NCBI GenBank assembly: GCA_902492105.1
Contig: CABUKD010000004.1
Location: 4,301 to 68,300, forward strand
Reading direction: 5' to 3'
Length of the DNA stretch: 64,000 nucleotides
Source of the DNA: an uncultured Clostridium sp.
Lineage (GTDB): Bacteria; Bacillota; Clostridia; TANB77; CAG-508
The position numbers and the translations under genes were made by a program. Positions 43,024 to 46,633 of the stretch are shown here, one piece after another; the stretch's first letter is position 1, and every line of letters starts with the position of its first letter. Under the pieces are notes generated by a model. It saw only the letters and a list, made by a program, of their open reading frames with translations, searched no databases and was not told the DNA's origin.

Positions 43024-43166
43024 AGTGCCACGCGGAAACCAATGTTGTTGTTGCTGTTGGTCGCATTGTTGTTGTTCCTGTTAGCCGTGTAGTTGTTGCT
43101 GTTGTTGTAATTGCCTCCTCTGTTAGTGCAAGGGTTCGCATTACTGCTATTCGTGTTCGTGGAATT
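43024..43166 (-). repeat. DGR template repeat (TR)
   Basis: 143 bp collinear with 45327-45469. On the minus strand it is AAC-codon rich. Differences from VR are almost all at TR adenines. Confidence 0.9.
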
Positions 43167-43248
43167 ATCATTTATCCCTATTTCTTATTCTTTCTATTTT
43201 CATTTTTTAACAAATTTAGAATTATCTTTTTTGTTTGAATTTTCTGAC

Positions 43249-44268
43249 TTATTCATCATTTTCTATGTAAAATAGCTTTGTTGTTAAATTTTTTACATTG
43301 CCATATTTTATATAACCCATATGTCCACTTAAATACTTTTTAGCTTCATTACTACTAATTTGTTTTGTTTTAATTTTATACTTCATTTCCTTTATTTTTT
43401 TCTTTAGTTTTCTTTTTCCTCTATCTCGTATTTTTAGCCTATATTCATTAATCTTGTATCCACAAAAATTAACTCCTTGTTTGCTTTTAAATATTTGTGT
43501 TTTTTTATTTAATTGTAATCCTAATTTTTGCTTCAAAAAGGTTTCTATTTGTCCTTTTACTTGTTTTGCTTCTTCTTTTGTTTTTAGTAAAATAACAGTA
43601 TCATCTAAGTATCTAAAATAATACTTGCAGTGTAGTTTATGTTTTGCATATTGGTCTACTTCATTTAAATAGATATTGGCAAACATTTGTGATGTATAGT
43701 TTCCTATTGCTAACCCACATTTTCCTTCATTAGAGTAAATAATTTTTTCTAATAACCATAATAATTTTTTATCCTGTATTTTTCTTTTTAATATGTTATA
43801 CAAAATATCTTTATTGATATTTTCAAAATATTTTGCTATATCCATTTTTAAAATACAGTAGTTTTTCCATGTTCTGCTTAAATGCTTCATTGCTTTTTGA
43901 ACGTCTAGGCATGCTTTATGCATTCCTCTTTTCTGTAAACAAGCATAACTTGTAGAAATAAATGTTGGTACAAAATATGGTTCTAAAAAATTATCTACTA
44001 CCCATCTATGTACTATTCTATCTATATATCTGCTTTTTTCTATTCTTCTTTGTTTTGGTTCTGTAATATAAAATACGGTATATCCTCCATGCTTATATTT
44101 TCCTGTTTTTAACTTCTCATATAGCCACATAATATATTCTTCTTGTTTTAAGTTAAATAAAATTAATTCTTTTCTATAGCCTTTTCCTTTTTTACTTAAG
44201 TTATGGGCTCTCATTAAATTGTCATAGCTTAACTTTTTATCGTATTCATTTCTAATTGTTTTTGGCAT
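43249..44268 (-). CDS. DGR reverse transcriptase
   Basis: 339 aa with RT motifs including LAIGNYTSQMFANIYL (DGR-type (I/L)GxxxSQ) and FRYLDDTVIL (YxDD). Adjacent to TR and Avd. Confidence 0.9.
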   Translation of the reverse strand: MPKTIRNEYDKKLSYDNLMRAHNLSKKGKGYRKELILFNLKQEEYIMWLYEKLKTGKYKHGGYTVFYITEPKQRRIEKSRYIDRIVHRWVVDNFLEPYFVPTFISTSYACLQKRGMHKACLDVQKAMKHLSRTWKNYCILKMDIAKYFENINKDILYNILKRKIQDKKLLWLLEKIIYSNEGKCGLAIGNYTSQMFANIYLNEVDQYAKHKLHCKYYFRYLDDTVILLKTKEEAKQVKGQIETFLKQKLGLQLNKKTQIFKSKQGVNFCGYKINEYRLKIRDRGKRKLKKKIKEMKYKIKTKQISSNEAKKYLSGHMGYIKYGNVKNLTTKLFYIENDE

Positions 44269-44626
44269 AATATTTGATTAATCCTCCAACAATTTTCCCT
44301 ATTTCTGCTATTTTACTAATTGCTATTTTAAATTTTCTTTCATCTATCCATTTGTTTTTGTACATAATTCTTAAATAAATTCTTTGACAATTTAATTTTG
44401 CATCTATTTTATTTAAATAATCTAATCTTTTATTTTCAGTTATTTTACTAATATACATAGCATGTTCTAGCATTTTGTAAATGGACTTTTTATATTCATT
44501 GCCAATATTAAACTTTTCTACTCTGGGAATTTTTAAAAGTACTTCTAACATATATTGTATATATTCTTCTATTTTTGGTATCAGTTTTAATTGTTCATTA
44601 TTTACTTGCTTTTTTAATTCATTCAT
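44252..44626 (-). CDS. avd: DGR accessory variability determinant (Avd-like four-helix-bundle protein)
   Basis: 124 aa, basic and all-helical, resembling the 23S-rRNA-intervening-sequence protein family. Overlaps the RT start by 17 nt. Confidence 0.75.
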   Translation of the reverse strand: MNELKKQVNNEQLKLIPKIEEYIQYMLEVLLKIPRVEKFNIGNEYKKSIYKMLEHAMYISKITENKRLDYLNKIDAKLNCQRIYLRIMYKNKWIDERKFKIAISKIAEIGKIVGGLIKYYAKNN

Positions 44627-45033
44627 TTATTATTTTCATCTTGTAAATATTTGTGAATAGCATTTAAATATTTATCTTCTTCATAGCATCTGATACCTTT
44701 ACAAATTAAACAATTTTTATTACTTCTTTTTTCTTTATGATATTTTCCACCATTTTGATATTTTGTAATAATCTCTTCTTTTTGATGATCAAAGTCATAC
44801 ACAATATATGCTATTCCCATAATTTCTAATTTTCTTAAATAATGCTCTATTCTATTTTCTGGAATTCCTATTTTACATATTTGATTTTTAAAACATACAC
44901 ATTTTAATTTTAATTCTTGACCAAGAAATACTGCATCTGCTCCTGTTGCTATATAGAAAATACCTGCTTTTATTAGTACGATAGAATTTTTATTTTTTTC
45001 TTGCAATATTTCTAACATATTACTAAAACTCAT
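44623..45033 (-). CDS. MutS domain I (mismatch-recognition)-like accessory protein
   Basis: IVLIKAGIFYIATGADAVFLGQELKLK...KIGIPENRIEHYLRKLEIMGIAYIV aligns with the MutS N-terminus (ILLFYRMGDFYELFYDDAK...[25 protein letters not shown]). Start set at MSFSNM behind AAAGGTGG. ATGA overlap with avd. Confidence 0.65.
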   Translation of the reverse strand: MSFSNMLEILQEKNKNSIVLIKAGIFYIATGADAVFLGQELKLKCVCFKNQICKIGIPENRIEHYLRKLEIMGIAYIVYDFDHQKEEIITKYQNGGKYHKEKRSNKNCLICKGIRCYEEDKYLNAIHKYLQDENNK

Positions 45034-45098
45034 ATTTTTGCCACCTTTCTTTGTCACGCCATTACTGTATTTGCGAGAAAACCCGCAAATGCAGTAAT

Positions 45099-45170
45099 GG
45101 CGCCACGCTAGTGGCGCCACGCTAGTGGCGCCACGCTAGTGGCGCCACGCTAGTGGAAAATTTTAGCCTA
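45099..45170. repeat. Tandem repeat, 5 x 14 bp (GGCGCCACGCTAGT) plus GG
   Basis: Counted directly. Adjacent units form GGCGCCAC-GCTA-GTGGCGCC hairpins. About 71% GC in an AT-rich genome. Confidence 0.95.
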
Positions 45171-45313
45171 CCTTACGCTTTTTCAAAGCGCAGGTATCCT
45201 AAAATTTTCCACTTCTTCGCGTATCTTCGATTCGCTAGAAGTCGGTTCTTTATGTTCTCTACGACTTCCTAATTTTTCTTCTTAAAACTAATTACCACTA
45301 CCAGTGACCAGTG

Positions 45314-46633
45314 CTACTTTATATAAAGTGCCACGCGGAAACCAATGAGGTTGTTGCTGCTGGTCGCACCGCTGTCGTACCTGTAAGCCGTGTAGTAGTT
45401 GCTGTCGTCGTAATTGCCTCCTCTGTTAGTGCAAGCGTAAGCATTACTGCTAGACGTGTACGCGGAATATTCTGTAGTCCATTCTCCTACATTTGCTGCC
45501 ATATCAAATATGTTACATACTTCATCTCCTGTTTCTCCTGTATTCATTAAACTGCTATTTCCTGTTTGATCTTTTCCTGCATTTGCATAATTACTATTTG
45601 CTTCATTCATACTTTGAATAAATACAATTGCTGTATCCCATGCATAACTATTTGTTAAATCACTTTCTACTCCTACTGTTGTATCTCCTGCCTGATACAT
45701 ATTCTGGCATATCTTTGAGGCATCTAATTGTGTTACATAGTTCCATAACATTCCTTGTGTTAATGGTGTACTACTACTTGTCCTTGGTGTTCCTGTCGAT
45801 ACTTTTGATAATGGCTTCCAATCTGCTGTACTACTTCCGCTTTCATAACTTGCCTCATACCTTGCTATATAATATCCTCCATTATCTGCTACACTTTGCA
45901 CAAAGCCTGCTAAATTTTTAGCAGTGGCATTTAAATCGTTTAGATGATTACTATTATCTACTGTTCCTGCTCTATAGGTTGTTAATTCTTGATAATATCT
46001 TGGTATTGTAACTTCATCTTCGTAGTTTTGTTCTTGATTACTTGGGTTATCTCCTGCAAATGCTGCCTGTTGTATTGTTGGGTTTCCATTTGTTTCATCA
46101 AATGTATATCTTCCAAGTTTTATCGTTACATCATTTTCCGGATTATTATCTTTATGTACTGTTCCTACCGGTATCCATACAAATTGGTTACCTGTGGTTG
46201 TTTCTGTGCCTGTTCCGTCTTCTATTACAATTCCTTCTGGTACGGTTGTTGCTTCACTAGTTACTACTTTGAATCCTTTTGGTACAACTACTACATTTCC
46301 ATAGGTATCTTTTGCCTTTTGTCCTTCCTCTTTTTGTACGATTTCTGTTACTGTTGTGATATCTACTATCTCTTCTGGGTCTGTCGGTGTTTCATCTTCT
46401 CCGCCATTCATTATGCTATTTAATTCATTTACTAAATTTTGAATTTCTTGTTGCTCATTTGCAACTGCACCCTCCCATGTGTTTTTGGCTTCTTGCGCTG
46501 TTCTTATTATTCCATCTTCTCCTAGTAACATATTGATTGTTACTCCTGATAGAATTAATAAAATTACAATGGTTACAACCAATGCGATGAGGGTGATACC
46601 TTGACTACTTTTTAATCTATTTAATCTTGTCAT
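45314..46633 (-). CDS. DGR target protein: prepilin-like N-terminus, FGE-sulfatase/C-type-lectin-fold C-terminus carrying VR
   Basis: MTRLNRLKSSQGITLIALVVTIVILLILSG... and ...AANVGEWTTE...NRGGNYDDSNYYTAYRYDSGATSSNNLIGFRVALYIK. AGGAGG Shine-Dalgarno. Confidence 0.85.
   Translation of the reverse strand: MTRLNRLKSSQGITLIALVVTIVILLILSGVTINMLLGEDGIIRTAQEAKNTWEGAVANEQQEIQNLVNELNSIMNGGEDETPTDPEEIVDITTVTEIVQKEEGQKAKDTYGNVVVVPKGFKVVTSEATTVPEGIVIEDGTGTETTTGNQFVWIPVGTVHKDNNPENDVTIKLGRYTFDETNGNPTIQQAAFAGDNPSNQEQNYEDEVTIPRYYQELTTYRAGTVDNSNHLNDLNATAKNLAGFVQSVADNGGYYIARYEASYESGSSTADWKPLSKVSTGTPRTSSSTPLTQGMLWNYVTQLDASKICQNMYQAGDTTVGVESDLTNSYAWDTAIVFIQSMNEANSNYANAGKDQTGNSSLMNTGETGDEVCNIFDMAANVGEWTTEYSAYTSSSNAYACTNRGGNYDDSNYYTAYRYDSGATSSNNLIGFRVALYIK
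45327..45469 (-). repeat. DGR variable repeat (VR)
   Basis: Collinear with TR. 17-18 substitutions at TR-adenine positions against 2 elsewhere. A shared 3' 20-mer ATTGGTTTCCGCGTGGCACT (IMH-like) is followed by divergence. Confidence 0.9.

Follow-up and report, generated by a model that had tools for sequence, protein, structure and literature searches.

A 64,000-nt stretch of DNA from an uncultured Clostridium sp. (GenBank assembly GCA_902492105.1, contig CABUKD010000004.1, positions 4,301 to 68,300; the whole stretch is called the window in the following) contains a diversity-generating retroelement (DGR), with a reverse transcriptase (RT) gene, accessory genes, a template repeat (TR), and a target gene that ends in a variable repeat (VR). 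The host is an uncultured gut Clostridia bacterium with AT-rich DNA (28.8% GC in the window). Such an element had been proposed in a first-pass annotation made from the letters of the window alone, and it was followed up here computationally. Its parts, several of them open reading frames (ORFs), all lie on the minus strand:

42914-43025, minus strand: RT-14 RNA (Rfam RF02921; 70.8 bits, gathering score 48.1)
43024-43166, minus strand: TR, non-coding, with 57 adenines in 143 nt and 20 AAY codons in the VR frame
43249-44268, minus strand: DGR reverse transcriptase, 339 aa (RVT_1, 1.3e-17; motifs IGNYTSQ and YLDD)
44252-44626, minus strand: avd, 124 aa (Pfam bAvd PF22296, 2.7e-18, 66.9 bits, cutoff 40)
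44623-45033, minus strand: MSL, 136 aa, consisting of MutS domain I only (PF01624, 1.4e-7, 32.1 bits, cutoff 20.6)
45314-46633, minus strand: target (variable protein), 439 aa, with more than 5,900 homologs
45327-45469, minus strand: VR, the final 47 codons of the target ORF
45327-45346 (VR copy), minus strand: invariant GC-rich 3′ block ATTGGTTTCCGCGTGGCACT, 20 nt, identical in the TR, resembling the boundary at an initiation-of-mutagenic-homing element
46406-46633, minus strand: N-terminal module of the target (aa 1-76), a basic 12-aa leader ending in Gly, followed by ITLIALVVTIVILLILSGVTINML

A repeat finder returned a 145-nt direct repeat pair (43021-43165 and 45324-45468; offset 2303, 86% identity, gapless). 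When TR and VR were aligned without gaps on the minus strand, 20 of the 143 positions were mismatched, and 18 of these were TR adenines (A>T 8, A>G 8, A>C 2), which corresponds to a hypergeometric P of 9e-7 for at least 18 of 20, given 57 A in 143 nt. The TR and VR flanks diverge just past ATTGGTTTCCGCGTGGCACT, and this block was unchanged in all VR alleles described below. Thus, what had been read by eye was reproduced by the computed alignment and its mismatch-class table: the repeat pair without indels and with its coordinates exact to the base, the position of the VR as the last ∼47 codons of ORF 45314-46633, the bias toward TR adenines (18 at A, two non-A), and the identical 3′-terminal 20 nt followed by divergence. 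In the frame of the target, the 47 codons of the TR include 15 AAC and five AAT, 54 of the 57 adenines are at codon position 1 or 2, and only a single codon (AGA) could mutate to a stop. As far as the sequence tells, this codon make-up is the classical DGR design.

Seven copies of the locus were compared, namely the window and six human-gut metagenome contigs (L001-L006, from samples ERZ27256421, ERZ825915, ERZ27256367, ERZ918309, ERZ24773480, and ERZ2916281) in which the cassette has the same chromosomal neighbors. The target protein itself was matched exactly by a database entry, and in relatives of 91-96% identity nearly all differences were within the last 47 residues. While the TR was 100% identical in 7/7 copies, the VR occurred as four alleles (window/L001/L002; L003/L004; L005; L006). 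Mismatches between VR and TR were at adenines in 18/20 cases for the window, L001, and L002, in 17/17 for L003 and L004, in 25/25 for L005, and in 25/25 for L006. The first-pass annotation had named VR polymorphism at other than A-templated positions as a possible refutation; the six contigs showed a constant TR and VR polymorphism at TR adenines in 38 of the 40 columns that varied (P 5e-18). Compared with the window, contigs with other alleles had 22-33 differences within the 143-nt VR, whereas outside the VR, in the 3,720-nt cassette, contigs differed at 0-4 point positions and by one 28-nt indel. Homing was, therefore, very recent relative to the background mutation rate, and the comparison shows recent mutagenic homing in the gut population. 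Near-isogenic strains from different people, with identical TR and wholly reshuffled VRs, make this locus a clean, naturally replicated example of a DGR.

The RT ORF contains LAIGNYTSQMFANIYL and YFRYLDDTV. Its best match in the Protein Data Bank (PDB) was 8ub7 (1.4e-37, full length, 133 bits), which was identified as Brt of the Bordetella phage BPP-1 by a PDB search with the annotated brt gene; the best group II RT reached 71 bits, group II intron RTs were found at ∼1e-18, and retron RTs were likewise far behind 8ub7. Direct alignment with Brt, the closest solved structure, gave 30% identity over 336 columns, end to end (E 2e-45). Both the IGxxxSQ and YxDD motifs, seen on first reading as IGNYTSQ and YLDD, and the similarity to Brt argue that the RT belongs to the DGR clade. 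The ORF that had been called Avd-like is confirmed as such by its Pfam match; its score against NCBIfam NF033474 (DivGenRetAVD) was 74.4 bits, slightly under the cutoff of 80, and BLASTP aligned it to BPP-1 Avd with E 9e-7. The MutS-I-like ORF scored above the Pfam cutoff, as listed, aligned weakly to the mismatch-binding domain of Msh3, and with its 136 aa falls inside the published range of 112-283 aa. No HRDC-like ORF was found in the cassette. MSL and avd overlap by 4 nt, and avd and the RT gene by 17 nt; therefore, the three genes form one translationally coupled unit, in keeping with the single operon assumed before. A terminator scan found none, and promoter-like sites were no more frequent than in shuffled sequence. 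Reading the RT as part of a retron or of a defense-associated reverse transcriptase system was rejected, as PADLOC gave generic RT matches only and no defense-system partners.

The gene order described in the first-pass annotation (target-VR, MutS-I-like gene, avd, RT, TR) stands, but not as a novelty. The order avd-RT-TR is known as Architecture B2 (Wu et al. 2018, PMC5758913), and MSL occurs in 16 of 372 curated DGRs, invariably with avd, such elements being Architecture D (PMC5758913). Neither MSL nor a TR placed after the RT gene is novel, since both are part of the published DGR classification.

The RT-14 RNA begins on the last two bases of the TR, i.e., it abuts the TR 3′ end. At a related locus, L032, RT-14 is located 5 kb from avd and the RT gene, yet again directly 3′ of a repeat copy. 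The motifs RT-1 to RT-19 were defined by their proximity to RT genes; RT-10 is the spacer between TR and brt of BPP-1, and other RT motifs were speculated to serve other DGRs (Weinberg et al., PMC5737381). The Bordetella Spacer RNA (∼140 nt), located just downstream of the TR, binds Avd, and its 2′-OH primes cDNA synthesis; among 278 DGRs with Avd, 207 were predicted to have Avd-binding stem-loops immediately 3′ of the TR (10.1101/2023.10.23.563531). By analogy, RT-14 is best read as the Spacer-type RNA (Avd-binding and cDNA-priming) of the DGR lineage studied here. The TR would be free to follow the RT gene because the functional unit would then be the TR with its 3′ RNA, not the TR with the RT gene. 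A statement assigning RT-14 to DGRs was not found in the literature searched, coverage of which was incomplete; the locus offers concrete support for this orphan Rfam motif as the Spacer-type RNA of one DGR lineage. Weak Rfam matches to mir-927 and rmf in spacer sequence were below threshold and were dismissed as chance.

The target is composed of a pilin-type N-terminal module, an acidic, Pro- and Thr-containing linker, a beta-rich middle part, and a C-terminus resembling FGE-sulfatase and C-type lectin (CLec) domains, which ends in the VR. Such a VR scaffold had been proposed from the strings GEWT, RGGNY, and GFRVA, all of which are present, and FGE-sulfatase (PF03781) was matched in 19 of 58 homologs of 55-82% identity (best 1.5e-8); the target itself stayed under the Pfam thresholds for this domain. 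A PDB search with a profile made from the final 300 residues of 65 diverse paralogs matched SUMF2, SUMF1/FGE, PorK/GldK, and 5aoh (deposited as spore coat protein CotH). A full-length family profile returned only sub-threshold pilin N-termini and one spurious flagellar match. The FGE-sulfatase/C-type-lectin-like fold is, therefore, supported at the family level but not demonstrated for the target itself.

The N-terminus of the target reads MTRLNRLKSSQG followed by ITLIALVVTIVILLILSGVTINML, i.e., a short basic leader with Gly at position -1 precedes ∼20 hydrophobic residues; the string KSSQG-ITLIALVVTIVILLILSG, on which a prepilin-like N-terminus had been proposed, is present. After ITLIALVVTIVILLILSGVTINML, a conserved helix follows (GEDGIIRTAQEAKN...), so that the module resembles a class III signal with a pilin-type alpha1 segment. 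The residues G12, T14, L15, L18, T21, I27, and L28 are invariant or almost so, and the following helix is conserved too. Among 146 relatives inspected, 141 have Ile at +1 and Ala at +5, and the median leader length is 14 aa. N_methyl (PF07963) was matched in 21 of 58 close homologs, with scores of up to ∼21 bits among relatives, and the only PDB matches of the family profile at the N-terminus were type IV pilins (MshA, geopilin, and PilA; E 0.3-0.5). Scanning with residues 1-77 (HMMER) retrieved 20,500 representative clusters at E ≤ 1e-3, with proteins of 75-929 aa; in the longer ones, the module is fused to DUF285, BspA-type leucine-rich repeats, Big_2, MucBP, GH5 cellulase, FctA, a ConA-like lectin, PT-HINT, or FGE-sulfatase. 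Judged by this spread, the module is a general N-terminus for surface proteins of the host lineage.

A link to type IV pili (T4P) emerged from related genomes. At locus L037 (2503-8942), a T4P operon is located directly upstream of a paralog of the target; it encodes a 142-aa G|ITLIAL protein, a prepilin peptidase (A24_N_bact 5.6e-31), two more pilin-like proteins, a PilB-type ATPase (T2SSE 9e-100), a PilT-type ATPase (T2SSE 1e-44), and a PilC-type platform protein (T2SSF 4e-26). With this peptidase, 80 metagenome loci (L086-L165) were fetched, 59 with a recognizable peptidase ORF, of which 54 had upstream sequence; the loci are redundant and represent ∼8-10 species-level groups of related gut Clostridia. 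In 54/54 loci, a short gene (72-191 aa) with the G|[IV]TL[IV]AL motif lay within 3 kb and on the same strand as the peptidase gene. In 42 of them, it was immediately upstream of the peptidase, the usual place of major pilin genes, often in two to three tandem copies. The presumed major pilins of L037 and L086-L165 have Ile at +1 and Ala at +5. Because these proteins also have Ala at +5, the missing Glu is a lineage-wide trait and not a tip signature, and a bacterial T4P that lacks Glu5 across a whole lineage would in itself be unusual. The prepilin-like character claimed for the N-terminus, thus, holds insofar as the same module heads short genes beside a prepilin peptidase in related loci; these are in other genomes, and the window is devoid of pilus genes. 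By its sequence relationships, the module is assigned as the pilin N-terminus of a T4P system in related gut Clostridia, of which the target shares ∼60 residues; the target is, however, not classed here as a canonical type IV pilin. A GspG-type pilin domain has been listed among the rare domains of VR-bearing proteins (PMC11661182), and an N-terminal transmembrane segment or signal peptide combined with binding domains is the norm for cellular DGR targets (Roux et al., PMC8144416). A description of DGR targets with an Ile1/Ala5 pilin-type module was not found in the searched literature (coverage incomplete).

We, therefore, consider it highly probable that the locus is a chromosomal, currently or recently active MSL-type DGR that rewrites the end of a pilin-like surface binding protein, probably one displayed in a T4P-like manner or anchored in the membrane. 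Several points weigh against this assignment. Two of the TR/VR mismatches in the window allele are not at adenines (one G>T and one C>G, near the 5′ end). In L001, a single-base change at the equivalent of window position 43441 cuts the RT to 275 aa, and its VR allele is that of the window; L001 is possibly a frozen element inside the same population, and some lineages may be frozen. The comparison was made at the level of assembled contigs, and the VR alleles could date from past activity. The target gave no Pfam FGE-sulfatase match at E ≤ 0.1; the PDB matches of the C-terminal profile, all over the VR-bearing EWT...RGG...FR scaffold, were borderline (E 1e-3 to 1); and the AlphaFold2 model of the target (58-sequence alignment) reached a mean predicted local distance difference test score of 48 (24-40 in the C-terminal domain), because of which it was discarded. 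At the N-terminus, the target has Ile at +1 and Ala at +5, not Phe/Met at +1 and Glu at +5, and N_methyl scored 15.6 bits, below the cutoff of 21.2. Neither pilus nor prepilin peptidase genes are present within the 64-kb window, and the peptidase-linked pilins, 53-59% identical to the target module over 44-62 residues, belong to other species. Moreover, the roles proposed below for RT-14, MSL, and a palindrome at the VR are drawn by analogy.

Some of these points would also be accounted for if the cassette were an inactive relic, TR and VR recording ancient homing and the alleles being inherited strain differences: the nonsense mutation in the RT of L001 and the two non-A mismatches of the window allele fit this, and the repeats of L032, the mismatches of which are not biased toward A, show that decay occurs in the family. 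However, every ORF of the window and of four other contigs is intact and the starts overlap, the TR shows perfect conservation, and 0-4 differences over 3.6 kb compared with 22-33 in the VR imply very recent homing, so we regard a relic as very unlikely. Even more improbable is a phage-borne or prophage tropism element. The RT is 34-42% identical to the DGR RTs of crAss-like, Faecalibacterium, Bordetella, and other phages, and a mobile element with serine recombinases is located ∼4-5 kb away in the window. The target, however, had zero matches among 50,697 phage records, no capsid, tail, or terminase genes were seen near the cassette, the N-terminus of the target is of a membrane or pilin type, and each genome has many chromosomal paralogs of the target. 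Furthermore, the cassette is flanked by genes for an ABC transporter and a DHH phosphoesterase on one side, and by a small ORF, IspH/LytB, and DUF4130 on the other, and these flanks are the same in all recovered contigs. Because of the shared housekeeping flanks and a target without phage match, the DGR is assigned as chromosomal and cellular, not as a prophage tropism cassette. A last alternative accepts the DGR as real and takes the target for a type II signal-anchor membrane protein, the helix of which stays uncleaved and never enters a fiber; this deserves serious consideration, although it is the less favored view. The noncanonical residues at +1 and +5, the sub-threshold N_methyl score, and the lack of pilus genes in the window agree with it, as does the fusion of the module to many unrelated extracellular domains, as would be expected of a generic anchor, and most cellular DGR targets have been described as simply membrane-anchored (Roux et al., PMC8144416). 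Conversely, the conservation of the module (the seven near-invariant residues plus the helix) exceeds what a plain transmembrane segment needs, the leader is short and basic with a terminal Gly, the module heads the 72-191-aa genes in major-pilin position by the peptidase in 54/54 loci, and the N-terminal PDB profile matches were all type IV pilins. Pilin-type processing or display of the target would, on these grounds, be somewhat more likely than a plain signal anchor.

If the cassette is indeed an active DGR of the MSL type, it may work along the lines of the Bordetella paradigm. The operon transcript, or a sub-transcript comprising TR and RT-14, would be bound by the RT-Avd complex; RT-14 would dock on Avd and, as the Spacer RNA does, allow self-primed cDNA synthesis at the TR 3′ end. 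The RT would then copy the TR and misincorporate opposite adenines. Finally, the VR would be overwritten by the cDNA, with the GC-rich 3′ block common to both repeats and, probably, the palindrome found only at the VR as guides. In Bacteroides, retrohoming is reduced 5-10-fold by host MutS, an effect of the all-or-nothing kind, and Msl is present in some of the DGRs of this genus (10.1101/2024.11.15.621889). The most likely role of MSL, which has nothing but a mismatch-binding domain, is to protect the mismatch-dense cDNA/VR heteroduplex from host MutS. The outcome would be a cell-surface binding protein with its C-terminal face randomized at ∼20 AAY codons. It would be exported and held by the module common to the T4P pilins of the lineage, and would probably reside on or with a T4P-like fiber, or be membrane-anchored. 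Given the suppression of retrohoming by MutS, the compact MSL-avd-RT-TR operon could be used to test the role of MSL. The DGR element as such is ordinary; as a study system, it is moderately interesting for its pilin-type module, the assignment of RT-14, and its compact operon with MSL.

A more far-reaching proposal is that Glu5-less (Ala5, Ile1) T4P are a display scaffold throughout the lineage, and that lectin-like modular pilins on this scaffold, one or more of them, are hypermutated in trans by MSL-type DGRs. The proposal is speculative and rather unlikely; if true, the pilus-borne adhesins of each cell line would form a quickly changing repertoire, the type IV equivalent of the DGR-diversified type V tips of Bacteroides. 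Should the pilin link as such be confirmed, DGR-driven variation of pilus adhesins would not be limited to Bacteroides type V pili.

The closest mechanistic parallel is the DGR of BPP-1 (mtd-VR, avd, TR, Spacer RNA, and brt), with which the studied element shares a Brt-like RT, Avd, adenine-specific flow from TR to VR, a VR at the 3′ end of a gene for a binding protein of (here putative) CLec type, a GC-rich invariant block at the VR 3′ end, and a structured RNA directly 3′ of the TR. In contrast to the phage-borne BPP-1 element, the one studied here is chromosomal and has an extra MSL gene; its order is avd-RT-TR instead of avd-TR-RT, with RT-14, not RT-10, following the whole operon; and, in place of a tail-fiber protein, it diversifies a surface protein of the cell, the N-terminus of which is of the pilin type. 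The Architecture D elements (PMC5758913; the Legionella DGR and those of Bacteroides, Bfr/Bth/Bun, 10.1101/2024.11.15.621889) likewise have a small MutS-domain-I gene beside avd and the RT gene and no HRDC, but the present host is an uncultured gut Clostridia bacterium of 29% GC, and the target class differs. The DGRs of Bacteroides type V pilus tips (Macadangdang et al., 10.1101/2024.11.15.621889) are also chromosomal, come from a gut commensal, sometimes carry Msl, and act on a CLec-type adhesive domain of a pilus-linked protein. Those pili, however, are of type V (strand exchange, lipoprotein precursors), whereas the studied target has a type IV pilin-like class III N-terminus, and pilus display, shown for Bacteroides, is deduced from the module in the present case. 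The TvpA DGR of Treponema denticola shares with it a variable protein of FGE-sulfatase/CLec fold (a putative fold in the studied target) and a host-associated bacterium; in T. denticola, several paralogous targets are apparently served by one TR, which is also hinted at for metagenome-assembled genomes (MAGs) related to the studied host. TvpA is a lipoprotein and its DGR uses HRDC, whereas the studied DGR uses MSL. Modular or minor type IV pilins, such as PilB and PilC of Streptococcus sanguinis, have a pilin-type N-terminal helix that carries a large adhesive module; in the target, by comparison, no pilin globular domain was recognized. In tip pseudopilins such as GspK, the missing Glu5 is typical of a fiber-tip subunit, whereas in the lineage studied here even the presumed major pilins have Ala at +5.

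The target belongs to an expanded family, with 464 relatives in one genome-collection scan and at least nine paralogs in a single MAG; the relatives are found in MAGs labeled uncultured Clostridia or Bacillota from human, Hadza, rabbit, and mouse guts. Only 2 of 79 paralog loci had an RT within the flank; therefore, most paralogs are remote targets or non-targets. When 3′ ends of paralogs from the closest MAGs were compared with the window TR, mismatches were at adenines in 19/21 cases for L008 and 31/38 for L007. Within one MAG, three paralogs share one GC-rich VR skeleton, whereas others are AT-rich and unrelated there (ungapped comparison); paralogs with a shared skeleton are L036, L043, and L049 in one MAG and L007, L008, and L010 in another, and their agreement with the window TR is mainly at non-A positions. 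This suggests that one DGR per genome may serve several remote targets, with other paralogs not being diversified. The window itself encodes a second module-bearing protein:

∼21254-22735, minus strand: second module-bearing protein, module 81% identical over 73 aa, CLec-like C-terminus GNCYEWT...RGG

This gene is AT-rich and without a match to the TR; it is apparently a non-diversified paralog. At L032 (8729-9412 and 12822-13140), an avd-RT cassette is present, and RT-14 and the adjacent repeat copy lie beyond a paralog gene. This repeat is paired with the 3′ end of a gene for another secreted protein (227 aa), and the mismatches affect all four bases. L032 was, therefore, excluded as support for activity and is probably a decayed or a different, atypical element.

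Further features are located at the VR end and between the target and MSL:

45316-45329, minus strand: perfect 14-nt palindrome ACTTTATATAAAGT, which starts at the homology end and takes in the first base of the stop codon
45034-45313, minus strand: structured spacer from target to MSL, fold z = -10.5 compared with shuffled sequence
45152-45213 and 45059-45100, minus strand: hairpins in this spacer (computed fold)
45095-45164, minus strand: tandem array of a 14-nt unit, each with the perfect palindrome GTGGCGCCAC, with varying repeat copy number

The palindrome ACTTTATATAAAGT forms a small hairpin in the computed fold, and its counterpart at the TR is disrupted, reading ACTCTAATACAAAA. By analogy, it may be a VR-specific cruciform that marks the recipient for target recognition; a cruciform at the VR has reportedly been described for BPP-1 by Guo et al. 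in 2011. The GTGGCGCCAC array is GC-rich within a genome of 28.8% GC. Three perfect palindromes are present in the window and in L002, and one in the other four contigs, which corresponds to the 28-nt indel. The array may serve the MSL-avd-RT operon as an operator or as a regulatory element prone to slippage.

Directly downstream of RT-14, one more ORF is conserved in all contigs:

42411-42749, minus strand: 112-aa ORF

Its product has a sub-threshold match to the single-strand-binding protein/OB-fold family (PF00436, 23.3 bits, cutoff 26); it could be a single-strand-binding accessory factor of the DGR, or a mere neighbor. Elsewhere in the window, a bacterial class A RNase P RNA was found at 6247-6595 (minus strand, 295.6 bits), which fits a chromosomal origin of the window. 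A tRNA gene at 50448-50518 is followed by serine recombinase/resolvase genes at 51089-52952 and 60843-62633, and a matching contig additionally carries a Mob_Pre relaxase in this recombinase region (window 51089-62633), which looks like an integrated mobilizable element, the one mentioned above at ∼4-5 kb from the DGR target. At 14120-16779 (minus strand), a sortase-like gene (TLSTC motif) lies beside a gene for a surface protein of 486 aa, the end of which has a PKTG motif resembling a sorting signal and a transmembrane tail; the two constitute a second surface-display system in the window, unrelated to the DGR target.

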